This document shows, piece after piece, positions 29,763-63,877 of a stretch of 64,000 bases of DNA (positions are counted from its first letter, which is position 1; each line of letters opens with the position of its first letter). Position numbers and translations under genes: made by a program. Source of the stretch: Candidatus Wildermuthbacteria bacterium (GTDB lineage: Bacteria > Patescibacteriota > Minisyncoccia > Minisyncoccales > UBA10102). The notes under the pieces were generated by a model. It worked only from the letters and a program-made list of their open reading frames with translations. It searched no databases and was not told where the DNA came from. The stretch spans positions 26,470-90,469 of the forward strand of contig JACPMK010000003.1 in the NCBI GenBank assembly GCA_016186115.1. The letters are read 5' to 3'.

Positions 29763-29838
29763 CGCGCTTTTATGTTTGGGCGTAAATAAAAGTAAGGTCT
29801 TGAGGTGTGTAGCAAAGCCGAGAAAAGGGAGGCGTGCT

Positions 29839-30102
29839 ATGACAACCGATCGCACCGAAAGATTGGAGCAGGAGGAGGTGGAGGGGACAAGGAAAAAGTA
29901 TGCGGCAACAAAAGCAGTAGTTCGGGAATTTGCAATACGAGTTATCCTCAAGGGAGAGGAGCTTTCGAAAGAGGAAAAACAAATGAATCGGAATGCACTA
30001 CAGTACCTCTTTTCCGACCAAACGCGCGAACTTGCGCACGGGTTAACAAAAGCAGAGATCGTGCTCGATGTTTTTAGAGGATTCTTTGCTCGGAAGACTT
30101 AG
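29839..30102 (+). CDS. Small orphan protein (87 aa), SD-led
   Basis: ATG at 29839 lies 6 nt after AAGGGAGG (29825-32). Followed by a long terminator hairpin. No family recognised. Confidence 0.5.
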   Translation: MTTDRTERLEQEEVEGTRKKYAATKAVVREFAIRVILKGEELSKEEKQMNRNALQYLFSDQTRELAHGLTKAEIVLDVFRGFFARKT

Positions 30103-30126
30103 AAAGGAGAATGAGTGATGTTCTTT

Positions 30127-30190
30127 AAGGACGTTGTTTGCTTATGCCAATAGAAGGGGCATAGGCAAGCAACGTCCTTTGTTGTTGTGA
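30127..30190 (+). terminator. Long hairpin / probable terminator
   Basis: 22-bp stem AAGGACGTTGTTTGCTTATGCC / GGCATAGGCAAGCAACGTCCTT. Its two non-Watson-Crick positions are G-U only on the plus-strand RNA. Followed by TGTTGTTGT. Confidence 0.55.
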
Positions 30191-30216
30191 GTATAAAATT
30201 TCCTATGGTACACTGA

Positions 30217-31533
30217 ATGCGTGATATGAAAAGAATTTTAAAGAAGATCTTTCCTCCATTTATTTTGAGTTGGTACCATTTTGTATTGGCCTTTGTCGCG
30301 GCGGCGTGGTATCGGTTTCCCTCGAGAGATTTAACGGTGATTGGAGTTACGGGAACGAATGGGAAATCAACCACAGTCGATATGATCTCCCGAATTTTCG
30401 CAGAAGCAGGCATTGCGACTGCTTCTCTCTCTTCGATACGATTCCAAATCAACGAAAAGGAATGGCGCAATACGCTCAAGATGACAATGCCCGGCCCGTT
30501 TTTTGCGCAGAGATTTCTTCGCAAGGCAGTGAATGCCGGCTGCACGCATGCGGTGACGGAGGTAACTTCAGAAGGGATTCTTCAGTATCGCCACCGCTTT
30601 ATCAAATTTCATACGGCTGTGTTCACAAATTTGTCGCCCGAGCATATCGAACGGCATGGATCTTTCGAACATTATCGCCAAGCAAAAGGGGGACTATTTC
30701 AAGCCGCACAACAAGTGCATATTACGAATGGTGATGATAAAAATTCTGAATATTTTCTTCAATTTGCAGCCAGAGAAAAGTGGATATATGGTCTGAAAAA
30801 TTCGAAATCCGAAATTCGAAATCCGAAACAAATACCAAATACTAAATACCAAATATTAAATATTGAGAACATTCAAATAGAGCGAAACGGAGTAGAGTTT
30901 TTTGTAAAGGGTACTGAATTTCATCTCAAGCTCCTTGGGGAGTTTAACGCATATAACGCTTTGGCTGCAATTTGCGTTGGGCTTTCTCAAAATATTCCCT
31001 TAGAGACATGCAAAAACGCGCTCGAAAACATTGAAAAAGTGCCGGGCCGTATGGAACTGATTATCCAGAAGCCCTTTTGGGTATTTGTTGACTATGCTTT
31101 TACGCCCAATGCCCTAGAAAAAGTGTATCGGACCCTCAAAGAGTTGCAGCATATACCAAATACTAAATTGGTTTGCGTGCTCGGGGCTGCAGGCGGAGGG
31201 CGGGATAAATGGAAGCGGCCGGTATTGGGAAGGATTGCGGCATCGTATTGCGATAAAATTATTGTGACCAATGAAGATCCGTACGACGAAAATCCCACGG
31301 AAATCATTGAACAGGTGGCAGAAGGCGCCGGGGAAGAAGCAGAAAAAATCTTAGACCGCAGAGAAGCAATTGGAAAAGCATTGCACTTGGCGGGCTCGGG
31401 AGACGTCGTCGTGATAACGGGGAAGGGCAGCGAGGATTCTATTGATGTGGCCGGTGGCAAAAAAATTCCTTGGGATGATCGGGAAGTTGTTAGGGAGGAA
31501 TTTAGAAAAATCCATTCTCAAGAGACCGTATAG
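30217..31533 (+). CDS. Mur ligase family protein (MurE-like UDP-MurNAc-tripeptide synthetase) with N-terminal TM segment
   Basis: GVTGTNGKSTT P-loop, central and C-terminal Mur ligase motifs (GAAGGGRDKWKRP), hydrophobic N-terminus. Confidence 0.8.
   Translation: MRDMKRILKKIFPPFILSWYHFVLAFVAAAWYRFPSRDLTVIGVTGTNGKSTTVDMISRIFAEAGIATASLSSIRFQINEKEWRNTLKMTMPGPFFAQRFLRKAVNAGCTHAVTEVTSEGILQYRHRFIKFHTAVFTNLSPEHIERHGSFEHYRQAKGGLFQAAQQVHITNGDDKNSEYFLQFAAREKWIYGLKNSKSEIRNPKQIPNTKYQILNIENIQIERNGVEFFVKGTEFHLKLLGEFNAYNALAAICVGLSQNIPLETCKNALENIEKVPGRMELIIQKPFWVFVDYAFTPNALEKVYRTLKELQHIPNTKLVCVLGAAGGGRDKWKRPVLGRIAASYCDKIIVTNEDPYDENPTEIIEQVAEGAGEEAEKILDRREAIGKALHLAGSGDVVVITGKGSEDSIDVAGGKKIPWDDREVVREEFRKIHSQETV
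30798..30867 (+). repeat. Heptanucleotide-periodic tract (about 10 units) inside the MurE-like gene, in frame
   Basis: AAATTCG AAATCCG AAATTCG AAATCCG AAACAAA TACCAAA TACTAAA TACCAAA TATTAAA TATTGAG. Translated as NSKSEIRNPKQIPNTKYQILNIE. Confidence 0.85.
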
Positions 31534-31602
31534 ACGGAACAAGATTTTTGTGCTACCTTGAGTGATTGCGTGCTATGAGGACGCTTTCTATTTTATACAA
31601 GC

Positions 31603-31821
31603 ATGACAGGAAAGAATTTGCCCAAAAGCATACGGAAGTTTATTCGTCAAGAAAAAGCCAGAATTCGAAGGCAGATTTTTGATCCCAAAGAACAAGCCAA
31701 AGCAATCGAAGAGCTTTACCAGCGCATATATAATCAATACGGAAAATCAACAGTAAAGCAATCCAAAGAGATTCCCAATAAACCTAGGCTTGCCTTGAGC
31801 GAAGTTGAAGAGTCCCCATAG
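31603..31821 (+). CDS. Small basic protein (72 aa), uncertain
   Basis: Track ORF rich in K/R/Q. Its last 10 nt overlap the tRNA-Arg 5' end. No SD. Confidence 0.35.
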   Translation: MTGKNLPKSIRKFIRQEKARIRRQIFDPKEQAKAIEELYQRIYNQYGKSTVKQSKEIPNKPRLALSEVEESP

Positions 31822-31884
31822 TTTAACGGATAAAGCGTTGGCCTCCGAAGCCAAAGATTGGAGGTCCGATTCCTCCTGGGGACA
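31812..31884 (+). tRNA. tRNA-Arg (anticodon CCG)
   Basis: Hand-folded cloverleaf: acceptor GTCCCCA/TGGGGAC, D arm GTTT-AACGGATA-AAGC, anticodon arm TTGGC-CTCCGAA-GCCAA, T arm GGAGG-TCCGATT-CCTCC, discriminator A. 73 nt, no encoded CCA. Confidence 0.9.
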
Positions 31885-32053
31885 CGATTTGGAAGTGGAT
31901 AGCTCAAGTATTGACGAGATGACTGGAATCTGCAAAGATGTACTCTAATTCTTCCAGCACCTTGGCACATATCTTTTGAGCGCCTTTTTGTTCAGGAGAT
32001 TGTGTTCGTGGCTAAAAGGGCGCTCAAAACAGCAGCGGGAGAAAGGGAGCAAG

Positions 32054-32251
32054 ATGGACGCAAACGCAGATATAAATTATCCGATGATGGTATGCTGTAC
32101 ATGTGGCCATCGGGAATCTTCGCGGTTTCTTACTGGGACAAAGTGCCGCGTAGATGGAGGGGCAATGGCTGAAGAAAAACCGGGGCCGGTTATCATTCCC
32201 GCAAGGATCCGTCAAGCGGACGCGGTCCGGCAGTTAGCTAAGGCAGTGTAA
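32054..32251 (+). CDS. Small Cys-rich orphan protein (65 aa)
   Basis: ATG at 32054 after GGGAGAAAGGGAG. Contains VCCTCGH...TKCRVDGG. Followed by two hairpins including a terminator. Confidence 0.4.
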   Translation: MDANADINYPMMVCCTCGHRESSRFLTGTKCRVDGGAMAEEKPGPVIIPARIRQADAVRQLAKAV

Positions 32252-32337
32252 TTTCAATATTTAAGAAGGGAACCTCGGGATGAGATGAAGAGCGCCGCTC
32301 TTCCCGAGGTTTCCTCAGGGTAGCATTCAACATTGTG

Positions 32338-32369
32338 GCAGGAGCATAAAAACTCCTGCTTTTTCTTTT
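32338..32369 (+). terminator. Rho-independent terminator
   Basis: GCAGGAG-CATAAAAA-CTCCTGC followed by TTTTTCTTTT. Preceded by a 13-bp hairpin at 32268-32314. Confidence 0.75.
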
Positions 32370-32443
32370 CGCGAAAGAACGAATTGCATGATATACTGAA
32401 CATAAGCTTAAAGGTCGCACCTATTACATTTTTTATAAGAATC

Positions 32444-32752
32444 ATGCAGAAAAAACGTGTTTTAAAAAAGAAGATCGCAAAGAAACCCGTTGTAAAGAAA
32501 GTAAAAGAGCAGCCCATTGGCAAGGTGGCGCATTACTATGACAAGATCGGAGTAATCGCGCTGAAGCTTACAAATCCTGTGGCAGTGGGCAATACAATTA
32601 GGATTGAGGGAGGAGAAAAATCATTCACGCAAAAGATCGCATCCATGCAGATCGATCATGAGAAAATCAAAAAAGCGAAAAAAGGAGATGAGGTCGGGAT
32701 CAAGATTACTCAAAAGGCAAGAGAAGGGTATCGCGTGTTTCGACAAAAATGA
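32444..32752 (+). CDS. Small beta-barrel protein resembling translation-factor domain II (EF-Tu_D2-like)
   Basis: K-rich N-terminus, then IGKVAHYYDKIGVIALKL...VGNTIRIEGG...QKIASMQIDHEKIKKAKKGDEVGIK, recalled as a translation elongation factor-like family. ATG at 32444. Confidence 0.5.
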   Translation: MQKKRVLKKKIAKKPVVKKVKEQPIGKVAHYYDKIGVIALKLTNPVAVGNTIRIEGGEKSFTQKIASMQIDHEKIKKAKKGDEVGIKITQKAREGYRVFRQK

Positions 32753-33882
32753 ATAGTTTTATTTTGGCTTTGTCAACGCTCGTTGGGGCGATTGTGGGAG
32801 CGGGGATTTTTGGCATTCCCTATGCTATCGCAAAAAGCGGGGTTGTGCCGGGAATTTTTTACCTCGGTGTCCTTGCGGGGGCAGTGCTTATCCTCCACTT
32901 GCTTTTTGGAGAAGTATGCCTGCGCACCAAAGAAAAATACCGGCTTATTGGCTACGCAAGAAGATATCTTGGGAAATGGGGTGAGGCGGCAATGATTTTT
33001 GCGACTTTCGTTGGAACAGTCGGCACCCTGCTTGCCTACATTATTATTGGAGGGGACTTTCTCAAAATTGTTCTTTCTCCTCTTCTTTCTCTTTCTCCCA
33101 TTGCGGCAACCTTTCTTTTTTGGCTTGTCCTTTCCTTATTTGTTTTTCAGGGCATTCGTTTTATTGCAAAAACCGAATTTCTCATGAATATCGCGCTTTT
33201 TATCGTGATCGCGCTCGTATTTCTTTTTGCTATCCCCCATATTCGAATCGAAAACTTTTCTCTTGTGCATGGCGATTCTCTGTTTTTGCCCTACGGGATT
33301 ATCCTTTTTGCTTTGATAGGGTGGTCTGCGATCCCCGAAATTGCAGAACTTTTTAAAAAAGACGACGAGAAGAAAAAACTTCGCAATGTTCTTCGATTTG
33401 CATCTCTTATCACCTTTGCGCTCTATGCTCTTTTTGTGTTTTTCGTGATCGGAGTATCTGGAGCCAACACCTCGCCCGATGCTCTTGGCGGTCTCGTCCC
33501 TTTTCTGGGAGAAAATATCGTGATTATTGGAGCGATCATTGGATTGTTTATTATTGCTGACTCCTACATCATTTTCGGCGATTATCTCAAAAATTCACTG
33601 TACTATGATTACAAGATACCCCTGTTTTTTTCTGCTGCGATAACAATATCTCTCCCGCTTGCGCTTTTTATGCTGGGATTGCGCCAATTCTCTGAAGTGG
33701 TGGCAGTTGTTGGTTCATTTATAGGAGCCGTTGAGGGAGTAACGATTCTCTTGCTTTTTCAGAAGGCCAGGCACCACGGCGACCGCGAGCCCGAATACAT
33801 CGTCTCCATCCCACGAATTTTCCTCATTTTTCTTGGATTGATTCTTATCTCCGGCGCTCTCCTCGGATTTGTTTTCCCGTGA
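32749..33882 (+). CDS. Amino acid permease-like polytopic membrane protein
   Basis: About 11 TM helices. The N-terminal GAIVGAGIFGIPYAIAKSG motif resembles aromatic/amino-acid transporter families. Confidence 0.65.
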   Translation: MNSFILALSTLVGAIVGAGIFGIPYAIAKSGVVPGIFYLGVLAGAVLILHLLFGEVCLRTKEKYRLIGYARRYLGKWGEAAMIFATFVGTVGTLLAYIIIGGDFLKIVLSPLLSLSPIAATFLFWLVLSLFVFQGIRFIAKTEFLMNIALFIVIALVFLFAIPHIRIENFSLVHGDSLFLPYGIILFALIGWSAIPEIAELFKKDDEKKKLRNVLRFASLITFALYALFVFFVIGVSGANTSPDALGGLVPFLGENIVIIGAIIGLFIIADSYIIFGDYLKNSLYYDYKIPLFFSAAITISLPLALFMLGLRQFSEVVAVVGSFIGAVEGVTILLLFQKARHHGDREPEYIVSIPRIFLIFLGLILISGALLGFVFP

Positions 33883-33907
33883 TAGAATGAGGTGTGCGAG
33901 AAAAAAT

Positions 33908-34672: not shown

Positions 34673-34678
34673 GATGTT

Positions 34679-35926: not shown

Positions 35927-35940
35927 AATATATCCTTACT

Positions 35941-36810
35941 ATGGATATCCCTAAAAATCTTCTGGACTTTCAGCCAATTCAAGCATTTGTGAAGGGTATT
36001 GGCAAAGACGTGGAGAATTACTTTGGAAAAGATGATGGAGCTATCATCTATCTTCAGCCAGACGGCATTTGGTATGCGGAAGGATTGTATCAATGGTTGA
36101 GACAGCGTAAGCAGAATCTTGTCATTGCTACCATGGAAGATGACGGCGCTGGCTTAGAGGAAGATAAGGTGAAGGGGAGAAAAGTTCTTGTGGTGGACAA
36201 CGACGTGGTTACCGGCAAGGCGTACAAAAGGGCCATGGAAGCCTTGCGGGTGCGCAAGCGACGCCTGAATATAAGAGATATAAAATTCGCTACTTTCTTT
36301 GATCGGATCGGTGTGGCCGATTTCTTTGTTGAAAAATATTCGGCGGAAGCGATCTGGCATTTTGATGAATTTGATGCGGTGGACCTGAAAATTATTAAAC
36401 AGCTGGCGCAGGATGGGAAAAAACCGCTCGCAGAGATTGGGAAAGCAGTTGGCTTGAGCGCGGTTTCGGTGAAAAATCGTATCGACAAGCTTGTGGCATC
36501 CAAGACCCTTGAAATCAGGGGTATGCTGCGCATCGATCAGTTTTTTGTCATTGCCGGGCATATCTTTATTGAAGCCGACGGAGCAACAATTTCTAAACTT
36601 CTTGAGCAATTCGAACATATGCAAGAAGTGCTCCATGTTGCGAGAACCATCGGGAAGTGGAATTTACTTGTGTGCGTTCTTGGGCACAACGTGGAGAGCA
36701 TCGAACAATTTATTAATAGTACCATTCATACTCATGCAGGAGTGAAGCGCCTCGAGGTGTATCTTGGGGAACTTCCTGCCAAACCAAAGCTACTTCTCCC
36801 GCAAGCGTAG
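35941..36810 (+). CDS. Fusion protein: phosphoribosyltransferase-like domain + Lrp/AsnC-type HTH and RAM domain
   Basis: N-terminal KVLVVDNDVVTGKAY (PRPP-loop-like). C-terminal DLKIIKQLAQDGKKPLAEIGKAVGLSAVSVKNRIDKL HTH, followed by an about 80-aa ACT/RAM-like module. Confidence 0.65.
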   Translation: MDIPKNLLDFQPIQAFVKGIGKDVENYFGKDDGAIIYLQPDGIWYAEGLYQWLRQRKQNLVIATMEDDGAGLEEDKVKGRKVLVVDNDVVTGKAYKRAMEALRVRKRRLNIRDIKFATFFDRIGVADFFVEKYSAEAIWHFDEFDAVDLKIIKQLAQDGKKPLAEIGKAVGLSAVSVKNRIDKLVASKTLEIRGMLRIDQFFVIAGHIFIEADGATISKLLEQFEHMQEVLHVARTIGKWNLLVCVLGHNVESIEQFINSTIHTHAGVKRLEVYLGELPAKPKLLLPQA

Positions 36811-36869
36811 ACGTCCTTTTGTTCTTGTTGAGGTTGCAGGTTGTTTTGTCTGTGGTAGAATACATCTCA

Positions 36870-37976
36870 ATGCTCTCTAAAAGGAGAGCTAAAGAGGAGG
36901 AGGGAAAGGTGGTAACAGCTCGAACTGCAGTGAAAGTTGAAGAGGAAAGAACGGCGGCGGCATTGCATGAGCTCGTGGAGGAATTCTTCCGTACAGGCCG
37001 CTTGGTGGTTTTGGAGGCGTACGAGAGAGGATTGGGACGGCAGACACTTAGCGAGGTTCTCCATCGAAAGCGGGCGGAGGATGTGAAGATAGAGGCTGAT
37101 GACATAGGGGATGGCCTTTGGAAAGCGTTGCTAAGTGGGAGCAAGGAGGATCTCCAAGTATTACGCAAAATGCTTGCGATCTTTGGGAGCGTCTCTCTTG
37201 TATCAGCCGTAGAACGTTCCATCGGGAAAGCCCAAGAGCTGAAGAGAAGGCATCCGATCCTCGGCAAAATAAGGGTTCACTCCGAACATGGGGAGTACGG
37301 GAGCAGTGACCCACTGATCATTTGCTACATCGATCCCTTAGATGGGAGCGATGAATTTCGAAATAGGATCTCGGGGTGCTGGTACATTGCTGTGAGCTTT
37401 TTCAGTAAGGCCTTAAAACCTATTGCAGCAGCAATGCTCGATATTGGGCTTGGCGAGATGTTCTTTGTGCCCTCTCCTAGGGGAGATGGGAAGGTGCACG
37501 TTAAGTTCTTTGACTCCGGCAGAGAACGTTTTGAGAGCCCGATCTCGGCAAAAGTGCTCCCCAAAAAGGGCACAATCCTTGTATACATGGGTCGAGAAAA
37601 TTATCTCCGGTCATTCCTTGAGGTGGCATCCTTCGTTCACGATGAAGCGTACGAAGGACTCACTCTGCATGGAAAGGGCGGATCATTCATCTATGCATGG
37701 CTTGCAGCTGGCAGGGGCCTGGCTTACATCATGGCGAATGAGCCAGTGAACGAGATCCTCCCCGGGATAGGATTTGCAAAGCTCATGGGCTGCCCCGTGT
37801 GGGTTGTGTGGAAAGATGGCAGAAGGGAGCAATTCGATATTGAAAGACACGGCAAATTAGCTCGCGTTGACTATCTGGTAGTTGCTTGCAACGAGCGGTT
37901 TGGAGAGAATCTTCTTCCAAAGCTCAAGCTGCCGCAGCCAGGGTGGCTGTTGGAGCGAGAATTAGTTATGGTGTGA
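36870..37976 (+). CDS. Divergent inositol monophosphatase / FBPase-fold family protein
   Basis: YIDPLDGSDEF (DPxDGT-like) and GKGGSFIYAWLAAGRG motifs. Looks G+C-richer than its neighbours. Start uncertain. Confidence 0.55.
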   Translation: MLSKRRAKEEEGKVVTARTAVKVEEERTAAALHELVEEFFRTGRLVVLEAYERGLGRQTLSEVLHRKRAEDVKIEADDIGDGLWKALLSGSKEDLQVLRKMLAIFGSVSLVSAVERSIGKAQELKRRHPILGKIRVHSEHGEYGSSDPLIICYIDPLDGSDEFRNRISGCWYIAVSFFSKALKPIAAAMLDIGLGEMFFVPSPRGDGKVHVKFFDSGRERFESPISAKVLPKKGTILVYMGRENYLRSFLEVASFVHDEAYEGLTLHGKGGSFIYAWLAAGRGLAYIMANEPVNEILPGIGFAKLMGCPVWVVWKDGRREQFDIERHGKLARVDYLVVACNERFGENLLPKLKLPQPGWLLERELVMV

Positions 37977-37991
37977 CCATAACTATCAATC

Positions 37992-38040
37992 AAAGGGGCC
38001 TCTGGAGGTTTTCCCCAGAGGCCCCTTTTACTTTCTTTTT
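37992..38040 (+). terminator. Strong rho-independent terminator
   Basis: 14-bp perfect stem AAAGGGGCCTCTGG / CCAGAGGCCCCTTT followed by TACTTTCTTTTT. Confidence 0.85.
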
Positions 38041-38049
38041 GGAAACCCC

Positions 38050-38077
38050 TTGACAAATATTTTGCAATTCATACAAT
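38050..38077 (+). promoter_or_regulatory. Sigma70-type promoter of the greA leader
   Basis: TTGACA (38050-55), 16-nt spacer, TACAAT (38072-77). Confidence 0.6.
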
Positions 38078-38083
38078 GATATA

Positions 38084-38330
38084 TGATGTGGATTCGCCGT
38101 TAGGAAAATTAGGGCATTCACGGAGTGTTTGTTAGGATTTTGAAGCAGGTCAACATCATGGTACAACATTTGCAGCAAAATTGTTTTCGACAGTTCTCTC
38201 TCAAAAAGCTCAATAACCAGAAAGCCATTATTGAGATTTCGATTATTGCGCACAGCCGGATTTGTTGACAATACATATCATTAGTACTGCATCGTCAATA
38301 AATCTGGCTCTCGCAAGCCAGATTTTTTTC
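38084..38330 (+). promoter_or_regulatory. About 245-nt greA leader: candidate leader-peptide attenuator (Ile-rich micro-ORF 38158..38268, antiterminator/terminator alternative)
   Basis: Micro-ORF MVQHLQQNCFRQFSLKKLNNQKAIIEISIIAHSRIC. A 16-bp helix 38254-69 / 38294-309 competes with terminator AATCTGGCT-CTCGCA-AGCCAGATT + T7 (38301-38330). No room for a promoter before greA. Confidence 0.5.
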
Positions 38331-38352
38331 TTCAATAATATTCTCACTACGT

Positions 38353-38838: not shown

Positions 38839-38912
38839 ATTCATTTTAGCTTTTTTGGAGAATTATTATTCGTTGCGATAAGAACTAGATCGCAGGCGGT
38901 CTAGTTTTATTT

Positions 38913-40273: not shown

Positions 40274-40870
40274 TTACTCCTGCTCTTCTTTCCACCAGAT
40301 AAGTTCTTCTGGATTCTGCAAGAGTACTGCCCAGAGTGCTTTTGCGCTTTGCGTAACGATACGGAGCTCTATCTCCTTAATGAACTCGGCGGTATCGTAC
40401 CCTTCTTTTCTGTAGAATAGTGCTTGAATGCCCTGCTCAATAATCATGGCATCATGGACCACTTTCGACTCTATGGTTGTGTTCTCATGATATTCTTTGA
40501 GCAGCTCTTCGAGGAGGTTCTTGGCAGAAGAGGGGAGGCCTGCTCTTTGTTTTTCTTCTGCCGCTTGGTCGATTTCTATCTTTTTAACCCCTAGATTTTC
40601 CAGAAGTCGCGCGAGTGGCCGAGCGATGTCTCCCGTTCTGGATTCTCCAATATCGTGGAGAGTTGCCATTGTGCAACACCGGAAGGGGTTCGCGTTCTCT
40701 TCCTCAGCTAGTAAAACCGCAATGATCGCAGTAACGAAGGTATGGTCCGCAACGGATTCAACCTTCGAAGGGGAAACTCCAACGCGGAACCAACCGGTCC
40801 GAGGGAGTACCTTTAGGGTGAACGCTTCTATAATAAACCTTGCTATTCCTCTTAATTCTTCTGTTTCCAT
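40274..40870 (-). CDS. HD-domain phosphohydrolase (YfbR-like)
   Basis: PRTGW...VADHTF...TLHDIGESRTGD motif set. Confidence 0.75.
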   Translation of the reverse strand: METEELRGIARFIIEAFTLKVLPRTGWFRVGVSPSKVESVADHTFVTAIIAVLLAEEENANPFRCCTMATLHDIGESRTGDIARPLARLLENLGVKKIEIDQAAEEKQRAGLPSSAKNLLEELLKEYHENTTIESKVVHDAMIIEQGIQALFYRKEGYDTAEFIKEIELRIVTQSAKALWAVLLQNPEELIWWKEEQE

Positions 40871-54370: not shown

Positions 54371-54436
54371 AGGAATAAACGCGGGGCGCAGCAAGTCCCA
54401 CTTTTATTTTTGGGAAAATCCAGTAGAATAGAGCCA

Positions 54437-58788: not shown

Positions 58789-60278
58789 ACAAAAAATTCT
58801 ATATCACAACTGCAATTCCCTATGTGAATGCCCGCCCGCACATCGGGCATGCTTTGGAATTTATTCAGGCCGATGTCATTGCGCGCTACCATCGTCTGAA
58901 GGGTGAGGAGGTTTTGCTTTTGTCTGGAAGCGATGAGAATGCGCTTAAAAATGTTCAAGCCGCCCAGAGCGCCGGAGTCCCTGTGCAGCAATTTATTGAT
59001 GAAAACGCCGTGCTTTTTGTCGAGTTGGCCAATGCGCTTGGCGTGCAATTCGACGTATTTCAAAAGGGAAGCAGCAAAGAACACCATCTCTCCAGTCAGA
59101 AACTGTGGCAACTTTGCGCCGAAAATGGGGATATCTACAAAAAATCCTACGAAGGTTTGTACTGCACGGGATGCGAAGCATTTTATACTCCAGATGAGCT
59201 TGATGCGAATCAGGAATGCCTTGAGCATCCCGGCCGAAAACTCGAGAGCGTCTCCGAAGAAAATTATTTTTTCAAACTTTCACGATATCAGGACAAAATC
59301 ATTAGTGTATTGGAAAGCGATGAATTGGAAATTGTTCCCGCGACCCGAAAAAATGAAATGCTCGCTTTTTTGAAACAGACACTGCAAGATATTAGCATTT
59401 CGCGCACCAATGAACGCGCCAAAAATTGGGGCGTGCCAGTTCCGGCCGATGATTCTCAAAGAATGTATGTTTGGTTCGATGCCCTCAATATGTATCAGTC
59501 GGGAGTTGGATTTGGATTAGATGAACAAAAGCATAACAAGTGGTGGCCGGCAGATATTCATGTGATTGGCAAGGGGATTATTCGTTTTCACGCGGTGTAC
59601 TGGCCGGCATTTCTTTTGTCGGCTGGGTTGCCTTTGCCCAAGAAAATCTTTGTTCATGGCTATATCACTTCAAGCGGACAAAAAATGTCAAAGACACTGG
59701 GAAATGTGGTTGATCCTTTTCCGCTTGTCGAAAAATATGGAAGTGGTGCAGTACGTTACTTTTTCTTGCGCGAAATTCCGCCGACAGAAGACGGCGATTT
59801 TTCCTATGAAAAATTCGAAGAGAGGTATAATTCTGACCTTGCGAGTGGTTTGGGAAATCTTGTCGCGAGAGTACTCGCGCTTGTAGGAAAAATAAATCCG
59901 AAATCCTTTGACAAGCTCAGAATCCCGAGCGAAGTCGAGGGACAAATTCAAAGTCCAAAACTGCGGGAAATTATAAATGCAGCGAGAGAAAAGGTGGATA
60001 CGGCGTTGGAAAAGTTTCAGTTTCAGGATGCGTTGATTGCCATTTGGGATGTGATTCATTTTTGCGACAGATATATTGAGGAGAAAAAACCGTGGTCTTT
60101 CGACTTCGCTCAAGATAAACCCGATCAAAAAGAAGTAATCGACGATTTATTGCTAGCAATTTTAGCAATCGGCACGCTTCTCAAGCCATTTCTCCCCGCG
60201 ACTTCAGAGAAAATAGCGAATCAATTGCAACATGGAAAAGGCGATCCTCTCTTCCCGCGTCTTGACAGAAATGTATGA
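58785..60278 (+). CDS. metG: Methionyl-tRNA synthetase (short form)
   Basis: PYVNARPHIGH (HIGH), KMSKTLGN, zinc knuckle CTGCEAF, C-terminal anticodon-binding helices. Confidence 0.95.
   Translation: MNKKFYITTAIPYVNARPHIGHALEFIQADVIARYHRLKGEEVLLLSGSDENALKNVQAAQSAGVPVQQFIDENAVLFVELANALGVQFDVFQKGSSKEHHLSSQKLWQLCAENGDIYKKSYEGLYCTGCEAFYTPDELDANQECLEHPGRKLESVSEENYFFKLSRYQDKIISVLESDELEIVPATRKNEMLAFLKQTLQDISISRTNERAKNWGVPVPADDSQRMYVWFDALNMYQSGVGFGLDEQKHNKWWPADIHVIGKGIIRFHAVYWPAFLLSAGLPLPKKIFVHGYITSSGQKMSKTLGNVVDPFPLVEKYGSGAVRYFFLREIPPTEDGDFSYEKFEERYNSDLASGLGNLVARVLALVGKINPKSFDKLRIPSEVEGQIQSPKLREIINAAREKVDTALEKFQFQDALIAIWDVIHFCDRYIEEKKPWSFDFAQDKPDQKEVIDDLLLAILAIGTLLKPFLPATSEKIANQLQHGKGDPLFPRLDRNV
59894..59941 (+). 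repeat. In-frame composite insertion in metG: two AAATCCN heptamers plus an imperfect palindrome
   Basis: AAATCCG AAATCCT, then CCTTTGAC (59905-12) / GTCGAGGG (59934-41) pairing with two G-U, and an inner GCTC/GAGC. Translated NPKSFDKLRIPSEVEG. Confidence 0.55.
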
Positions 60279-60289
60279 AAAAGTATACT
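60262..60289 (+). promoter_or_regulatory. Sigma70-type promoter overlapping the metG 3' end (cassette A)
   Basis: TTGACA (60262-67), 16-nt spacer, TATACT (60284-89). Confidence 0.6.
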
Positions 60290-60298
60290 ACACTAATC

Positions 60299-60379
60299 AT
60301 GAGCAGCCAGATCAGAAAAGGATTTTATTTCTTCTTTTTTACCAGCCCCGGCGAAGAGCGAGGTCGTTATTCTTGTTAA
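60299..60379 (+). CDS. Candidate near-leaderless leader peptide with a Phe/Tyr run (26 aa)
   Basis: MSSQIRKGFYFFFFTSPGEERGRYSC. The ATG is about 3-4 nt from the predicted TSS. The F/Y codons 60323-60340 are followed directly by ACCAGCCCC, which can pair with the terminator 3' arm. Confidence 0.35.
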   Translation: MSSQIRKGFYFFFFTSPGEERGRYSC

Positions 60380-60405
60380 TCGAAAACATCTAACCAAGAA
60401 ATCAC

Positions 60406-60441
60406 CCAGCCCTTCGTCAAACGAGGGGCTGGTTTTCTTTT
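60406..60441 (+). terminator. Rho-independent terminator / attenuator in the leader of the 117-aa ORF
   Basis: CCAGCCCTTCG-TCAAA-CGAGGGGCTGG (11 bp, one G-U) followed by TTTTCTTTT. Confidence 0.7.
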
Positions 60442-60542
60442 CGCCCTGCGGCGAAAAGACGATGTTTTCTGATGAGAGCTCCAACACATTCGGGTTTCTC
60501 ACCAGAGAAGATCTTAACTATCTCTGGTTAAGGAGGGAAACA

Positions 60543-60896
60543 ATGGCCGAACATCGTATGGGTATAATACAGGGTAGCACTGGAACGCTCAAAGAGGTTC
60601 TTGGAATGCTTGGGGTGTCGATAACAAAATTCGCATTCCAAGGGCATAATTCGTCGGACTCGTGTGGACAGCAAGGGGTGCATCCTCCTCACGTACTGGA
60701 GGAGTATAGACATTATTGCATTGGGAAAGCTGGCTGTGTGGGAGAGGATGTGCTTATCGTAATTGCCGAAGAACGGCAACTGTACCCAGCACGTGCAAAA
60801 GGGATTTACTTCCTCCTTCCAAGAAATGCATTCCCCTCTTTCCGGGATCCGCTTATGCAAGTTGGCGTAGGGCAAGGTCCTGGATATACCGGCTAA
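60543..60896 (+). CDS. Orphan protein, 117 aa, SD-led (P3)
   Basis: AAGGAGG (60530-36), 6-nt spacer, ATG at 60543. Cys/His-rich middle (SCGQQGVHPPH...YRHYCIGKAGCVGED). No family recognised. Confidence 0.55.
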   Translation: MAEHRMGIIQGSTGTLKEVLGMLGVSITKFAFQGHNSSDSCGQQGVHPPHVLEEYRHYCIGKAGCVGEDVLIVIAEERQLYPARAKGIYFLLPRNAFPSFRDPLMQVGVGQGPGYTG

Positions 60897-60917
60897 ATCT
60901 GGAAAGTACGGCCTATA

Positions 60918-60953
60918 GGGCGGAGCTTTACCGAGCTCCGCCCGTTTTCTTTT
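60918..60953 (+). terminator. Rho-independent terminator
   Basis: GGGCGGAGCT-TTACCG-AGCTCCGCCC (10 bp) followed by GTTTTCTTTT. Confidence 0.8.
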
Positions 60954-60998
60954 GACAAGCAGTTGACAACCCTGTTTTCAATTTGCTATGGTTATAAT
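60952..60998 (+). promoter_or_regulatory. Promoter of cassette B
   Basis: Consensus TATAAT at 60993-98. Two TTGACA copies (60952-57, 60963-68) are spaced too far away for a canonical -35, so the -35 is ambiguous. Confidence 0.45.
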
Positions 60999-61008
60999 AC
61001 TTGAGCTT

Positions 61009-61095
61009 ATGAAGAAAATCTCCCAAACAATGTTGCTTTTGTTGGTCTTGGTAACTAATCCTACTCGGTTGGGAGATTTTGATCGCAGAAGTTAA
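61009..61095 (+). CDS. Candidate near-leaderless leader peptide with a Leu/Val run (28 aa)
   Basis: MKKISQTMLLLLVLVTNPTRLGDFDRRS. The TTG CTT TTG TTG GTC TTG GTA codons are in phase. The ORF spans attenuator segments 1 and 2. Confidence 0.5.
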   Translation: MKKISQTMLLLLVLVTNPTRLGDFDRRS

Positions 61096-61121
61096 AAATA
61101 CAAAATTCCTTGCGACAACGT

Positions 61122-61153
61122 AACCTCCCAACCGCGGGAGGTTTCTTCTTTTG
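61122..61153 (+). terminator. Rho-independent terminator (segments 3:4 of the cassette B attenuator)
   Basis: AACCTCCC-AACCGC-GGGAGGTT followed by TCTTCTTTTGTCTT. Confidence 0.75.
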
Positions 61154-61327
61154 TCTTGAGGAGTAAGGAAAAGTTTATTCCTTATTCCCCAGGCCAGAAG
61201 AGTATGTCTGGTTTGGAGCAGCAAGTTCACCTACCATAAGCGTGAGCGTGCTGTAGGAAGATAATCCTGCGATCGGGTAACATCTGTGAGCAGGATAATC
61301 CTCTGAATTGCTAAGGAGGAGAACGAG

Positions 61328-61387
61328 GTGGTTGAGAAGACCCCCCACTTTCTTGGCTGCTTCGTTCTCTTCCCGCGCAATGTTTAG
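61328..61387 (+). CDS. Possible 19-aa micro-ORF, SD-led
   Basis: AAGGAGG (61313-19), 8-nt spacer, GTG at 61328. Encodes MVEKTPHFLGCFVLFPRNV. Confidence 0.25.
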   Translation: MVEKTPHFLGCFVLFPRNV

Positions 61388-61410
61388 CACATTGTATGAA
61401 GGAGGGTGAG

Positions 61411-61584
61411 ATGTACTTTGGTTCGCACATTTGCTGTCTGGATGCCTTTTTCATAGGGGAGGACGGCAGTGGGGCGGTGAAAAAACTTAAAGAGGCGCCA
61501 CCGCCGCCACCAGAAAACGAAAAGGAGAAACTTCTTCCTGCTGACGAAGACCTGCAAGGTCAGCAGGACGAGAAATCATCCTAG
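61411..61584 (+). CDS. Orphan protein, 57 aa, SD-led (P4)
   Basis: AAGGAGGG (61399-406), then ATG at 61411. Encodes MYFGSHICCLDAFFIGEDGSG...APPPPPENEKEK... with an acidic tail. Confidence 0.45.
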   Translation: MYFGSHICCLDAFFIGEDGSGAVKKLKEAPPPPPENEKEKLLPADEDLQGQQDEKSS

Positions 61585-61594
61585 CTCTCCCATG

Positions 61595-61647
61595 CGGCTC
61601 CTTTTGTTTGCGCATCAACGCGCAGCAGGAGGAGCCGTCCATTTTTT
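61595..61647 (+). terminator. Compound hairpin terminator
   Basis: CGGCTCCT (61595-602) / AGGAGCCG (61630-37) with inner TGCGC/GCGCA, followed by TCCATTTTTT. Confidence 0.6.
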
Positions 61648-61649
61648 AC

Positions 61650-61678
61650 TTGACATTATCCCTTGAGCTTACTAGTAT
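61650..61678 (+). promoter_or_regulatory. Sigma70-type promoter of cassette E
   Basis: TTGACA (61650-55), 17-nt spacer, TAGTAT (61673-78). Confidence 0.55.
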
Positions 61679-61695
61679 AAAATATACTCTTCAGC

Positions 61696-61788
61696 ATGGA
61701 CATTATTTTACAGATCAGACAAGCGATTATTGGCATTATTACCATTATTAGCCCCACCAAACGAGGGAGTTTCTTGCAGCAGCTATAA
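61696..61788 (+). CDS. Candidate leader peptide with an Ile run (30 aa)
   Basis: MDIILQIRQAIIGIITIISPTKRGSFLQQL. Four ATTATT pairs plus one ATC are all in frame with the ATG. Confidence 0.45.
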   Translation: MDIILQIRQAIIGIITIISPTKRGSFLQQL

Positions 61789-61813
61789 ACTACAAACTAC
61801 TAACTAAAATCTG
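61786..61813 (+). repeat. Heptanucleotide-periodic tract (TAAACTA type) between micro-ORF and terminator
   Basis: TAAACTA CAAACTA CTAACTA AAATCTG. Confidence 0.7.
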
Positions 61814-61814
61814 C

Positions 61815-61845
61815 ATCAGCTCCCTCGCGGGGGCTGATTTTTTTG
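61815..61845 (+). terminator. Rho-independent terminator (cassette E)
   Basis: ATCAGCTCCC-TCGC-GGGGGCTGAT (10 bp, one G-U); the run of seven T (61838-61844) begins at the last stem T. Confidence 0.8.
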
Positions 61846-61928
61846 AGCATAGTGCATGGGCTTGATTCTCCAATCTCATTCACTGCGCTCAATACCAGAG
61901 AGTGCAGTAATAGCACGAGGAGGGTGTA

Positions 61929-62111
61929 ATGAAAAGGGAAGAGAAGTCCGATATTATTGAAGAAATCGTGACGGTTCTCGCGGGAGGAGATTTTGCCGGA
62001 GGCGAGAAACAGCGCCGCAAAAATCGAAAAGATAAGCTGGAGAAGAAGAGGTGGGGGAAAGCTGCTGCTGACGCAGGAGCTCTGCCTGCCAAAGACAGTC
62101 TTGATTTGTAA
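61929..62111 (+). CDS. Orphan protein, 60 aa, SD-led (P5), highly charged
   Basis: GAGGAGGG (61916-23), then ATG at 61929. Encodes MKREEKSDIIEEIVTVLAGGDFAGGEKQRRKNRKDKLEKKRWGK.... Confidence 0.5.
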   Translation: MKREEKSDIIEEIVTVLAGGDFAGGEKQRRKNRKDKLEKKRWGKAAADAGALPAKDSLDL

Positions 62112-62136
62112 TTTATGTTTCTCTTCCTTAGGTTTC

Positions 62137-62177
62137 GGGGGCTCGCTGAATGGTTCGCGAAGTGAGCCCCCTTTTTT
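62137..62177 (+). terminator. Rho-independent terminator
   Basis: GGGGGCTCGC / GTGAGCCCCC (10 bp, one G-U), 15-nt loop, followed by TTTTTT. Confidence 0.8.
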
Positions 62178-62192
62178 GTGGAAATATTCCTC

Positions 62193-62221
62193 TTGACGAT
62201 ATTTTGCAAAGAGATTATTCT
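62193..62221 (+). promoter_or_regulatory. Sigma70-type promoter of cassette G
   Basis: TTGACG (62193-98), 17-nt spacer, TATTCT (62216-21). Confidence 0.5.
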
Positions 62222-62281
62222 AGGTATTGTTTTAAGAATCACTGCACCTTAAACAGAGCATTAGTTGAAGGGAGAAGGAGA

Positions 62282-62590
62282 ATGGCAAAGACAGCTGTCC
62301 TCCTTAGGAAGGGGGATTGGCAGAATGGCAGGACGGGAGATTACAGTAAAATCGTAGAGCTGTTGAAGATTCTTCACAGGGAGTTCAAGGTTCAGCGGCT
62401 CTTACTTGATCAGGAAGTTCTTGATGCGTTGCCTTCAAAACTTCGTGATGTTAAGCTTGTGTTTCTTGTTCCCTCCGGAGGCCAGAAGCCACAAACTCCG
62501 GAAGGGATCAAGATAACAATAGCTGAACTTCCAGAGAATTTCTCGAAGATGGAATTCATCGCAGCCGTCTTTCCCGATTTCCCACAATAG
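62282..62590 (+). CDS. Orphan protein, 102 aa, SD-led (P6)
   Basis: GGAGAAGGAG, then ATG at 62282. Encodes MAKTAVLLRKGDWQNGRTGDYSKIVELLKIL.... No family recognised. The longer track start at 62150 was rejected. Confidence 0.55.
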   Translation: MAKTAVLLRKGDWQNGRTGDYSKIVELLKILHREFKVQRLLLDQEVLDALPSKLRDVKLVFLVPSGGQKPQTPEGIKITIAELPENFSKMEFIAAVFPDFPQ

Positions 62591-62618
62591 CCCGTCCACT
62601 AGGCCGGGCTATTTTTTT
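62588..62618 (+). terminator. Rho-independent terminator
   Basis: TAGCCCGTCC-ACTA-GGCCGGGCTA (one mismatch) followed by T7. The stop codon lies in the stem. Confidence 0.75.
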
Positions 62619-62659
62619 GTCTTCTTTATTATTCTTGCTTTTTGAGTACAATAAAACAT

Positions 62660-63544
62660 ATGCCTTTTCTCATCGATACCCATGGACATGTTAATTTCAA
62701 TGCGTTTCGCAACGATGCGGACGATGTTCTTGGCCGCGCATTGAAAAATGATACGTGGGTGATCATGCCCGGCTCTCAATATTCCACATCGCAGCGGGCG
62801 GTTGAAATCGCAGAGCGTTTTAAAAATGGAGTTTTCGCCGCAGTCGGCATTCACCCCATCCATTTGGAGCATCGGGAAGTAGATGTGATGGAGGTACAGT
62901 CAGCGAAGGGAGAGAAAGAGAGCTGGATGACCTTTGAAACTAGAGCCGAAGAATTTGATCATGAGGCCTATAAAGATTTAGCAAAAAGCAAAAAAGTGGT
63001 GGCCATCGGCGAGGTTGGTCTTGACTATTATTACGAACCCAAAGGCAAGGCGAAAAGAGAGGAATTCCGGGCGCGACAAAAGGAAACTCTCGAGAAACAA
63101 ATTTCACTGGCCCTTGAATTGAATCTTCCCGTCATTTTGCATTGCCGCGCCGCCCATCCCGATCTTTTTAATCTACTCACTACCCGCTATCCACTGCCAA
63201 CCAGCGATTTTCGTGGCGTGCTGCATTGTTACACAGGAAATCTTGAGCAGGCGAAAAAATTTTTGGATCTGGGTTTATACTTCGGATTCAATGGTTTGAT
63301 TTTCAAAAAAGTTCCTGCGCTCCCTGATCCGCGCGAAATTATTTCTTTTCTTCCATTGGATCGCATTCTTCTCGAGACCGATTCGCCGTATTTGGTTCCA
63401 TCGCAGGCGGCTGTAGAACGAAATGAACCTTTGTTTGTAAAGTACGTTGCCCAGGAAATTTCCCGCATCAAAAATATCCCCCTTGAAAAGGTAGCAGAAA
63501 TTACCACCCAAAACGCCTTGACTCTTTTCCATTTATCTTTTTAG
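62660..63544 (+). CDS. tatD: TatD family metal-dependent hydrolase/DNase
   Basis: MPFLIDTHGHV start, GIHP, EVGLDYYY, HCR and ETDSPYL motifs. It has an unusually long insert between the GIHP and EVGLDYYY motifs. Confidence 0.9.
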   Translation: MPFLIDTHGHVNFNAFRNDADDVLGRALKNDTWVIMPGSQYSTSQRAVEIAERFKNGVFAAVGIHPIHLEHREVDVMEVQSAKGEKESWMTFETRAEEFDHEAYKDLAKSKKVVAIGEVGLDYYYEPKGKAKREEFRARQKETLEKQISLALELNLPVILHCRAAHPDLFNLLTTRYPLPTSDFRGVLHCYTGNLEQAKKFLDLGLYFGFNGLIFKKVPALPDPREIISFLPLDRILLETDSPYLVPSQAAVERNEPLFVKYVAQEISRIKNIPLEKVAEITTQNALTLFHLSF

Positions 63545-63550
63545 CCATCC

Positions 63551-63579
63551 TTGACAAAGAACTATGGAAATTTTAAGGT
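63551..63579 (+). promoter_or_regulatory. Possible promoter
   Basis: TTGACA (63551-56), 17-nt spacer, TAAGGT (weak -10). Confidence 0.4.
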
Positions 63580-63606
63580 GGAGCTAAGCTAGGAGGGAGG
63601 AAAACA

Positions 63607-63786
63607 ATGAGCACATCCGAGATAGGAAAGCATATCTGTAGAGAGTGGGCGGAGAGAATCCCAGGGGCTCCGGGTTTCTGTATCTGTCGGAAATGTGGGG
63701 GGCGGGTGTTGACAGAAGAACCAAATAGACCCCCCGAAGGTACAAACAGGAAAGGAACCACCGCACAATTTCTGGAGGTGGCGTAG
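63607..63786 (+). CDS. Small Cys-rich orphan protein (59 aa, below track threshold), SD-led (P7)
   Basis: AGGAGGGAGG, then ATG at 63607. Encodes MSTSEIGKHICREWAERIPGAPGFCICRKCGGRVLTEEPNRPPEGTNRKGTTAQFLEVA, a possible zinc ribbon. Confidence 0.45.
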   Translation: MSTSEIGKHICREWAERIPGAPGFCICRKCGGRVLTEEPNRPPEGTNRKGTTAQFLEVA

Positions 63787-63804
63787 TTGAAGACCCATAT
63801 TCGA

Positions 63805-63856
63805 GGGGGCGAGACAACGGAGAAGATTAATTCTTCTTTCTCTGTTTCGCCCCTAA
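63805..63856 (+). terminator. Long compound hairpin between convergent genes
   Basis: GGGGCGAGACA (63806-16) / TGTTTCGCCCC (63843-53) with one G-U, inner GAAGA-TTAAT-TCTTC, followed by TAATTTGTT. Confidence 0.55.
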
Positions 63857-63877
63857 TTTGTTCTCCGCCATGAGCGT

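Follow-up and report, generated by a model that had tools for sequence, protein, structure and literature searches.

Two probable modes of translation initiation and candidate amino-acid-responsive attenuators upstream of small genes in a Wildermuthbacteria genome

Introduction

The DNA analysed here, referred to as the window, is a 64-kb stretch of a metagenome-assembled genome of Candidatus Wildermuthbacteria (Patescibacteria, or Candidate Phyla Radiation, CPR). It contains dnaA, dnaN, many aminoacyl-tRNA synthetase genes, ruvABC, polA, polX and greA, together with smpB/tmRNA, infC-rplT, a type IV secretion/pilin-like cluster and a two-component system. CPR bacteria are thought to rely on their hosts for amino acids, and to our knowledge almost nothing is known about gene regulation in this group. 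We describe two classes of genes in the window that differ in whether they carry a Shine-Dalgarno (SD) sequence, and three candidate leader-peptide attenuators in the metG-tatD interval that precede members of the SD-led class. A previous sequence-only reading had contrasted SD-less housekeeping genes with small SD-led open reading frames (ORFs), and had proposed either a distinct expression regime or a foreign origin for the latter.

Results

SD sequences at the starts of long genes and small ORFs

SD strength was scored as the best duplex that positions −20 to −3 could form with the canonical anti-SD sequence, and a region was called SD-like at ΔG ≤ −7 kcal/mol. We chose 48 long ORFs with tightly bounded starts, the median distance from the upstream in-frame stop to the ATG being 9 codons. 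Pfam domains begin at residues 1–6 in many of these ORFs, and MetRS and TatD align from residues 1–5 to dozens of relatives. Duplex energies of the 48 genes ranged from +2.8 to −6.5 kcal/mol. None reached −7 when every ATG, GTG and TTG from the upstream in-frame stop to +20 codons was considered. As 6.8% of start-like triplets inside genes reach this value, SD-like sequence is depleted at the starts of long genes and not merely absent. The housekeeping genes are thus SD-less as first described, and the names given to them (GreA, PolX, ArgRS, GlyRS, TyrS, Mur ligase, histidine kinase, DnaA/DnaN, TatD and MetRS) also held. In seven related genomes, 87% of 77 long ORFs were likewise without an SD.

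Ten SD-led ORFs gave energies of −7.8 to −12.6 kcal/mol, so that the distribution is bimodal when they are set against the long genes. These are S1 (29839, +), S2 (32054, +), S3 (60543, +), S5 (61411, +), S6 (61929, +), S7 (62282, +), S8 (63607, +), S9 (1800, −), an HD-domain gene (40870, −) and G36909 (36909, +; 355 amino acids (aa), GTG start). The last two are additions to the original list, and S4 (61328, +), which was on it, was kept apart. An AGGAGG-type motif was found where it had been reported for every listed ORF. The weakest SD is that of S2, at −7.8. The size range of 57–117 aa applies to most of the small ORFs, S4 being only 19 codons long. Because the listed ORFs were picked by eye for SD motifs, the statement that small ORFs have an SD is partly circular, and an unbiased scan also finds strong SD-plus-ATG sites within genes (e.g. 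7494). The association of SD-led genes with the lack of a known family is nevertheless real: a Pfam family is missing in 9 of the 10 SD-led ORFs compared to about 8 of 50 SD-less genes, and no small ORF has one, in agreement with the claim that their families could not be recognised.

Initiation of the SD-less genes

Thirteen of 24 operon-first long genes have a TAnnnT hexamer ending 5–11 nucleotides (nt) before the ATG, with a peak at 7–8 nt. Shuffling the same upstream regions gave an expectation of 4.9 ± 1.9, and none of 2000 shuffles reached 13. Examples are tatD (TACAAT-7-ATG), smpB (TAGAAT-7-ATG) and glyS (TAGAAT-7-ATG); the first is given in full here.

62647-63544 (+), tatD, leaderless-type example: TACAAT, 7 nt, ATG at 62660, no SD

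This −10 box was not enriched upstream of internal operon genes (4 of 24), none of which (0 of 24) had an SD at ΔG ≤ −7. Relative to the stop codon of the gene before them, internal genes start between −11 and +38 nt, and nine overlap it. This arrangement fits coupling to the upstream cistron. Initiation of the Bacteroidota type, which is independent of the SD, goes with a changed or masked 16S 3′ end and an A-rich motif in place of the SD; here, the region from −20 to −1 is 66–69% A+T compared to 55% overall. Spacing of the Pribnow box is the signature by which leaderless transcription is called in group C of GeneMarkS-2 (PMC6028130). From the spacing of the −10 box before the ATG of first genes, the SD-less class is probably largely leaderless, the remainder being coupled to an upstream cistron. 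The SD-led genes have predicted 5′ untranslated regions (UTRs) of ~20–55 nt behind consensus-type promoters, and of 100–250 nt behind the attenuators described below. Given the −10 spacing of the one class and the 5′ UTRs of the other, the two classes are best read as leaderless or coupled versus leadered transcripts. Transcript architecture, and not gene class or origin, would then cause the split. The proposal of a distinct expression regime is borne out to the extent that two initiation modes appear to operate in one genome. By itself, the general split into SD-led and SD-less genes is a genome type already described.

Three candidate leader-peptide units between metG and tatD

In most Patescibacteria tatD directly follows metG. 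In the window they are 2.4 kb apart (60279-62659), and the insert holds S3, S4/S5, S6 and S7. A scan of both strands of the whole window for a promoter, an ATG-initiated ORF of 8–45 codons and a terminator returned exactly three units, all within 1.6 kb and all with amino-acid runs. The identical scan of 1.41 Mb of other Patescibacteria loci gave six matches, of which just one (L006) was leader-like. The leader ORFs span 26–30 codons and contain the runs FYFFFF (Phe), LLLLVLV (Leu) and IIGIITII (Ile), where background frequencies are 5.3% for F, 10.5% for L and 7.6% for I. All eight Ile codons of the Ile leader are AUU, and six of them lie in the regulatory run. None of the leader ORFs has an SD.

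60262-60289 (+), Phe promoter: TTGACA, 16 nt, TATACT; 9 nt separate the −10 box from the leader ATG
60299-60379 (+), Phe leader ORF: MSSQIRKGFYFFFFTSPGEERGRYSC and stop; regulatory codons 60323-60340; segment 2 ACCAGCCCCGGCGAAGAG at 60341-60358
60406-60442 (+), Phe terminator: 12-bp stem followed by TTTTCTTTT
60952-60998 (+), Leu promoter: two TTGACA boxes (one at 60963); −10 TATGGT/TATAAT
61009-61095 (+), Leu leader ORF: MKKISQTMLLLLVLVTNPTRLGDFDRRS and stop; run 61033-61053; segment 1 at 61018-61026; segment 2 at 61066-61077
61122-61152 (+), Leu terminator: AACCTCCCAACCGCGGGAGGTT and a T-run; 10 bp of perfect complementarity between the 5′ arm and segment 2
61650-61678 (+), Ile promoter: TTGACA, 17 nt, TAGTAT
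61696-61788 (+), Ile leader ORF: MDIILQIRQAIIGIITIISPTKRGSFLQQL and stop; run 61726-61749; segment 2 at 61762-61771
61815-61846 (+), Ile terminator: intrinsic terminator with T-run

The terminators consist of GC-rich stems with T-runs, each lying 26–28 nt past the leader stop codon. We detected no promoter-like site in the stretches that separate these terminators from the SDs of S3, S4/S5 and S6; therefore these genes would be transcribed only by read-through. Most of the small ORFs had originally been described as bracketed by their own promoters and terminators. For 60543, 61328/61411 and 61929 this assignment was mistaken: what the TTGACA promoters (60262, 60963 and 61650) and the hairpins (60406, 61122 and 61815) enclose are the leader ORFs, upstream of the SD-led ORFs. 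Searching Rfam identified no leader family at the gathering score; the best match was to Phe_leader (RF01859) at 25 bits against a threshold of 55 (E = 0.44), and it falls on the Leu unit (61017-61151).

A further hairpin that re-uses the U-tract (60436-60459) directly follows the Phe terminator. Next comes the conserved motif ATGTTYTCTGATGAG, with which a long imperfect hairpin begins that stops ~15 nt short of the payload SD (60436-60530). Both also occur in L005, L208, L209, L210 and L211 (related intervals described below), and two stem positions appear by eye to covary. We considered CUGAUGAG, located after the Phe terminator, as a hammerhead and rejected it, as the motif is part of the long hairpin and no Rfam ribozyme was found in the window.

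Predicted alternative RNA structures

In each unit the 5′ arm of the terminator has a complementary segment in the 3′ part of the leader ORF, just past the run. The predicted pairings are GGCGAAGAG with CCCTTCGTC in the Phe unit, CGGTTGGGAG with CTCCCAACCG in the Leu unit and CGAGGGAG with CTCCCTCG in the Ile unit. The Leu pairing is a perfect 10 bp, and an upstream segment 1 (ATCTCCCAA) can pair with segment 2. Compared to shuffled controls, the segment 2:3 duplex gave z values of −3.5 (Phe), −6.1 (Leu) and −5.8 (Ile). Complementarity was significant in 17 of 20 units from nine genomes (mean z = −3.9). The geometry is uniform over all 20, with the terminator beginning 20–39 nt after the leader stop.

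Folding was modelled with a ribosome block, such that only RNA 3′ of the ribosome may fold. With the A site at early codons of the run the probability of the terminator was ~0; this applied to 7 of 7 positions for Leu, the first 6 of 8 for Ile and the first 3 of 6 for Phe. With the ribosome at the leader stop codon the probability rose to 0.87–0.98 in all three units. In six aligned Phe units the terminator and the antiterminator were each ~86% paired, compared to ~40% with slid partners, and one compensatory CG to UA change was observed.

The metG-tatD interval in related genomes

We examined metG-tatD intervals from related genomes at 66–76% MetRS identity (L005 and L205–L211); the closest other MetRS sequences are just 74–76% identical to that of the window. 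Homologous attenuators occupy this interval in at least eight related genomes. Homologues of the Phe leader are found in L005, L205, L208, L209, L210 and L211. In L005 and L208 the gene behind the Phe leader (…FFF.FTSP…) and its terminator, which is the same throughout, is that of DAHP synthase; in L205 it is that of prephenate dehydratase, and L209 has both genes there, prephenate dehydratase and DAHP synthase. In L207, L210, L211 and the window, the Phe leader is followed by small ORFs of no known family. A homologue of the Leu leader is present in L206, and Leu-rich leaders of like design occur in L208, L005 and L210; in L005 and L210 they are followed by the gene for a stand-alone protein with a LeuA_dimer (leucine-binding) domain, and in L206 and L208 by one whose product is small and helical. 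The Ile leader has relatives in L207 and L210. L207 alone contains five units, of the Trp (VWWWA), Phe, branched-chain, Ile and Tyr/Phe types. The agreement, in these relatives, between the amino acid of the run and the pathway in which the downstream gene takes part is, in our view, the strongest argument for function that the sequences provide.

The content of the interval differs in every relative, which marks it as a hot spot of gene turnover as judged from these comparisons. A scan of metagenome DNA with the conserved leader segment ACCAGCCCNGGCGAAGAG yielded at least 120 chance matches, and none among the matches listed had a leader context. A tRNA-Leu(GAG) gene lies inside the island beside the leader units in L207 (15468-15544), L209 (16163-16237) and L210 (15492-15583), and none lies in that of the window. 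The Trp-run leader of L207 (…VRVWWWA…; 12620-13144, +) precedes a 104-aa ORF that is itself Trp-rich, with seven W (6.7% compared to 1.2% in window genes).

SD-led ORFs and their products

The SD-led genes of the island, and those elsewhere in the window, are as follows.

60530-60896 (+), S3 with SD AAGGAGGG: 117 aa, HYW95_02835, Phe payload; own terminator at 60918-60943
61313-61387 (+), S4 with SD AAGGAGGAG: 19 codons, GTG start, Leu unit payload
61398-61584 (+), S5 with SD GAAGGAGGG: 57 aa, Leu unit payload; terminator at 61596-61636
61917-62111 (+), S6 with SD GAGGAGGG: 60 aa, Ile payload; terminator at 62137-62171
62193-62610 (+), S7 unit: TTGACG-17-TATTCT, 5′ UTR ~53 nt, SD, terminator
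62282-62590 (+), S7 ORF: 102 aa, HYW95_02850
63551-63853 (+), S8 unit: promoter, SD AGGAGGGAGG, 59-aa Cys-rich ORF 63607-63786, terminator
29759-30176 (+), S1 unit: TTGACG-18-TAAATA, SD AAGGGAGG, 87-aa ORF 29839-30102, terminator
32044-32314 (+), S2: weak SD (−7.8), 65-aa Cys-rich ORF 32054-32251, terminator
892-1888 (−), S9 unit: perfect TTGACA-17-TATAAT, SD GGGAGGAG, ORF 952-1800, terminator
36850-37976 (+), G36909: extended −10 promoter, SD GAGGAGGAGGG, GTG start, 355 aa
40241-40881 (−), HD-domain gene: ORF 40274-40870, SD GGGAGGA, the sole SD-led gene with a Pfam family

The SD-led ORFs end just before the terminator or overlap its start, the first stem base lying at most 28 nt past the stop codon. 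S9 encodes a membrane-anchored, low-complexity protein of 282 aa; G36909 has no Pfam family and contains a DPLDGS motif. A hairpin in the 5′ UTR of S6 (CACTGCGCTC...) is common to L207 and L210. The NCBI starts of S3 and S7 differ from the SD-supported ones, and gene finders that assume an SD will mis-start genes in this lineage and miss leader ORFs.

Coding potential was scored as codon-usage log-odds trained on the long genes, with 133 spurious ORFs of like length as the control. Eleven ORFs were scored, the eleventh (31603) not being SD-led. S1, S3, S5, S6, S7, S9, the HD-domain gene and G36909 scored above all 133 spurious ORFs, with the annotated frame the best of six. S2 was borderline and S8 was indistinguishable from spurious ORFs. 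Most of the small ORFs thus look like genes with native codon usage, the exceptions being S2 and particularly S8, whose coding status is doubtful. They are also G+C-richer as had been claimed, at 47–53% compared to ~45% in long genes (45.1 ± 2.1%, or a mean of 45.3%), a modest difference (z = 0.9–3.9); only S9 stands out, at 60% (z = 7.1), because its product is rich in Pro, Ala and Gly.

No significant match to S1–S9 was obtained by tblastn and blastp against 80 Patescibacteria loci and eight close relatives, and a word-indexed search of 5.8 billion proteins with S3 returned only itself. An exhaustive HMMER search with S3 recovered P0123 (114 aa, 39% identity, E = 7e-16) and P0126 (115 aa, E = 2.5e-4). 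The three proteins share 19 invariant residues, including F.F.G.N, C, H.PH and C.G. In GCA_016177065.1 the order is metG, promoter, leader MKNAISRIINFYLFTCSGEEKGTCSC with stop, terminator, AAGGAGGG, P0123, a small helical protein and tatD. P0123 is thus syntenic with S3, being preceded in the metG-tatD interval by a leader, a terminator and an SD homologous to those of the window, and we conclude that S3 is a real gene. The S3-family profile gave no meaningful match to PDB sequences or Pfam. Single-sequence AlphaFold2 models were unusable (predicted local distance difference test scores of 40 for S3 and 52 for S7), and a protein search with S7 gave a self-match only. P0126 is encoded on a short, AT-rich contig (L213) made of SD-led small genes, which we read as phage-like; on that reading, the S3 family may have been exchanged with mobile elements. 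A type II hammerhead ribozyme (RF02276, 49 bits; L213 797-860, +) lies directly upstream of the P0126 SD.

S4 resembles the N-terminus of a small helical family whose members have 60 aa in L206, 71 aa in L208 and 68 aa in L211, and may be a truncated remnant of it. A profile of this family did not significantly recover S6 or S4/S5. S4 contains a C6 homopolymer (61341-61346, +), and a −1 shift here would continue S4 in the frame of S5; the tract could reflect a pseudogene, an assembly error or a slippery site.

An amino-acid permease gene (Aa_trans/Trp_Tyr_perm; 32749-33882, +) and one for an AsnC/Lrp-type regulator (35941-36810, +) are found near S2 and G36909. Their position near SD-led genes hints at other amino-acid-related control in the window.

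Discussion

Proposed mechanism

We consider it likely that one explanation covers these results, namely that two initiation modes coexist and that SD-led payload genes lie behind ribosome-mediated Phe, Leu and Ile attenuators. In the default mode, an operon-first gene would be transcribed from a −10 box ~7 nt before its ATG, giving a leaderless or nearly leaderless mRNA, and downstream cistrons that overlap or abut the preceding stop would be reached by coupling. Transcripts with a real 5′ UTR would need internal initiation and hence carry a near-perfect SD. In the island, a consensus promoter would start a transcript whose first 26–30 codons, with their Phe, Leu or Ile run, are initiated without an SD. 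When the charged tRNA is scarce, the ribosome would stall in the run and the downstream segment would pair with the 5′ arm of the terminator, so that RNA polymerase could continue into the SD-led gene. A ribosome that got as far as the leader stop codon would leave only the terminator free to form, and transcription would end.

Several observations weigh against this explanation. Eleven of the 24 operon-first genes show no such −10 box. Distances from the −10 box to the ATG of the leader ORFs vary from 3 to 17 nt, so that some leaders would have short 5′ leaders of their own without an SD. The SD energies assume the canonical anti-SD, and the organism's own 16S 3′ end may differ, neither the window nor the related loci containing a 16S rRNA gene. 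Under plain equilibrium folding with the ribosome at the stop codon, the Phe and Ile units still prefer the antiterminator, whereas the Leu unit switches under these constraints too, with pairing across the ribosome allowed. As the Phe and Ile units switch only if such pairing is barred, the model depends on the bound ribosome separating segment 2 from segment 3, which is a reasonable modelling assumption. Support from covariation is thin because the sequences are few and similar, with too little variation for a real test. Finally, S2 and S8 are poorly supported as coding sequences, and no homologue of S5, S6 or S7 could be detected, even where a relative has kept the leaders.

The lack of an SD at internal operon genes is a further point against, being contrary to the group C genomes of GeneMarkS-2 (PMC6028130), in which such genes use an SD. 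The window resembles that group in having a Pribnow box at a fixed short distance before operon-first starts and a second set of genes with an SD. It differs also in that SD sequences occur before only a few of its genes, which are leadered and mostly orphans.

Comparison with known attenuators

Attenuation of this kind is itself well known. Enterobacterial leader-peptide attenuators include pheL-pheA, pheM-pheST, leuL, ilvL/ivbL and trpL, and the Rfam families Phe_leader (RF01859) and Leu_leader cover such elements. The units of the window share with them a short ORF carrying a run of the sensed residue, segments that could pair as 1:2, 2:3 and 3:4, and an intrinsic terminator before the gene; all four segments are present in the Leu unit. 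In contrast to the enterobacterial elements, they do not belong to an Rfam family by sequence, their leader ORFs have no SD and start 3–17 nt past the −10 box, and segment 2 falls within the leader ORF, whose stop codon comes ~20 nt later. Moreover, the payloads are small proteins of no known family and not biosynthetic operons, and several amino-acid specificities are arrayed in one island.

Of the situations described so far, the closest is that of Corynebacterium glutamicum and other actinobacteria, in which trpE, leuA, ilvB and aroF have leader peptides upstream and leaderless mRNAs abound (PMC3890552); a leader peptide of Corynebacterium ilvBNC has also been described (PMC11857589). Both cases combine attenuator leader peptides with widespread leaderless initiation (PMC3890552), and the aromatic leader of Corynebacterium aroF (DAHP synthase) corresponds to the arrangement in L005 and L208. 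They differ in phylum, in the reduced genome of the present organism, in the lack of SD sequences at internal operon genes here and in the inclusion of orphan small proteins among the payloads, and no sequence similarity has been established. Full-text literature searches gave no paper linking leader peptides or transcription attenuation to Patescibacteria or CPR, and for SD use or leaderless initiation in CPR the matches lay in reference lists only. What is new is the presence of such units in CPR, leaderless-type leader ORFs, an arrayed modular layout in a variable island, and orphan payloads.

Alternative explanations

The attenuator RNAs or their leader peptides might act in trans, with S4, S5, S6 and perhaps S7 being decaying or de novo ORFs that remained once the amino-acid genes still present here in relatives had been lost. 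This would suit the conservation of leaders and terminators across genomes whose downstream ORFs are not homologous, the resemblance of the 19-codon S4 to what is left of a family with intact members in L206, L208 and L211, and the occurrence of DAHP synthase, prephenate dehydratase or a LeuA_dimer protein at the same positions in relatives. A trans-acting attenuator-derived small RNA (sRNA), rnTrpL, is documented in Sinorhizobium meliloti (PMC6614838). Like rnTrpL, the units of the window are kept as transcription units of their own with promoter and terminator; unlike for rnTrpL, there is no evidence of trans targets for them. Opposed to a role in trans are the retention of S3 behind the same leader, with its 39% identity and 19 invariant residues, and the state of S5 and S6, which keep an optimal SD, an ATG, native codon usage and a terminator right after the stop. 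In addition, when the window was searched by tblastn with the DAHP synthase of L005, no residual similarity to it was detected in the island. We regard this alternative as unlikely. The probability is much smaller still, and close to negligible, that ORFs 60299, 61009 and 61696 encode hydrophobic peptides (type I toxin-like or membrane) or are plain sRNA genes. Each does have its own strong promoter, a terminator and a hydrophobic core; on the other hand, the hydrophobic stretches comprise just 8–10 residues of one amino acid, the run matches the downstream pathway in relatives, and complementarity to the terminator arm is placed as in classical attenuators. No antisense promoter lies opposite any leader unit, the sole minus-strand promoter-like match in the island (60592-60564; 9/12) being inside S3.

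The SD-led small genes could also be phage-derived or otherwise horizontally acquired DNA retaining the signals of an SD-using donor, as the sequence-only reading had suggested. Their slightly higher G+C content, with S9 as the extreme, is in keeping with such an origin, as are the absence of a Pfam family in nine of ten, the different content of the interval in every relative, and the location of P0126 next to a type II hammerhead ribozyme on an AT-rich contig that we interpret as phage-like. Codon usage is native, however, and the promoters are of the host's own consensus type. Leader-terminator cassettes are vertically shared among Wildermuthbacteria, with attenuators in at least eight relatives and a syntenic homologue of S3. 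There is no integrase or transposase between metG and tatD, and no mobility genes or repeats flank the island in the window; the tRNA-Leu gene seen in relatives' islands is missing from it. Given the native codon usage, the vertically shared leaders and the lack of mobility genes, a recent foreign origin is not supported by the sequence, and we consider a foreign source for these genes very improbable. Ribosome-mediated attenuation of SD-led genes in cis, together with two initiation modes, is the explanation we prefer.

A possible sensor island

A more tentative extension, which we think could be right though the chances are against it, is that the metG-tatD interval is a modular amino-acid supply sensor island in which each attenuator gates its own SD-led payload and the sensors now control fast-evolving small proteins. 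The array of leaderless attenuators would comprise Phe, Leu and Ile units in the window, and Trp-, branched-chain- and Tyr/Phe-type units in relatives. Control of small proteins would apply to genomes whose biosynthetic payloads (DAHP synthase and prephenate dehydratase) have been lost, and the S3 family, with its invariant C...HxPH...C, would be among the proteins controlled. If so, an obligate symbiont unable to make amino acids could respond to shortage of a single one, and the small proteins might act on the host or on the cell's own translation. The cells would monitor charging of individual tRNAs, and the attenuators would be direct, testable reporters of that state. Sensors gating uncharacterised small proteins point to a starvation response made up of uncharacterised genes.

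Other features of the window

A consensus promoter (TTGACA-17-TACAAT) at 38051-38335 (+) is followed by ~250 nt without an ORF of more than six codons. A terminator at 38300-38330 lies directly before greA (38353), and the region has no Rfam match and a fold z of only −1.65; the stretch could be a greA leader that ends in a terminator, or an sRNA. The longest minus-strand frame of uvrB (27234-29762 region, to 29603) overlaps ruvA (29196-29762, +) by ~400 nt. As the UvrB domains fit a start at or after 29228, this long overlap is probably an artefact of ORF extension.

AT-rich repeats of low complexity (aaattcgaaatccgaaattcgaaatccgaaac... and ataccaaatactaaat...) occur in frame at 30795-30865 and ~31150-31170 in the Mur ligase gene (30226-31533, +). 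Downstream of this gene, a 72-aa Lys/Arg-rich ORF (31603-31821, +) has a gene-like codon score and overlaps the 5′ end of tRNA-Arg(CCG) (31812-31885) by 10 nt. The isoleucyl-tRNA synthetase gene (48434-51949, +) encodes a His_Phos_1 (histidine-phosphatase) domain inserted at residues 495-669, an architecture that is also listed for L205, L206 and L209.

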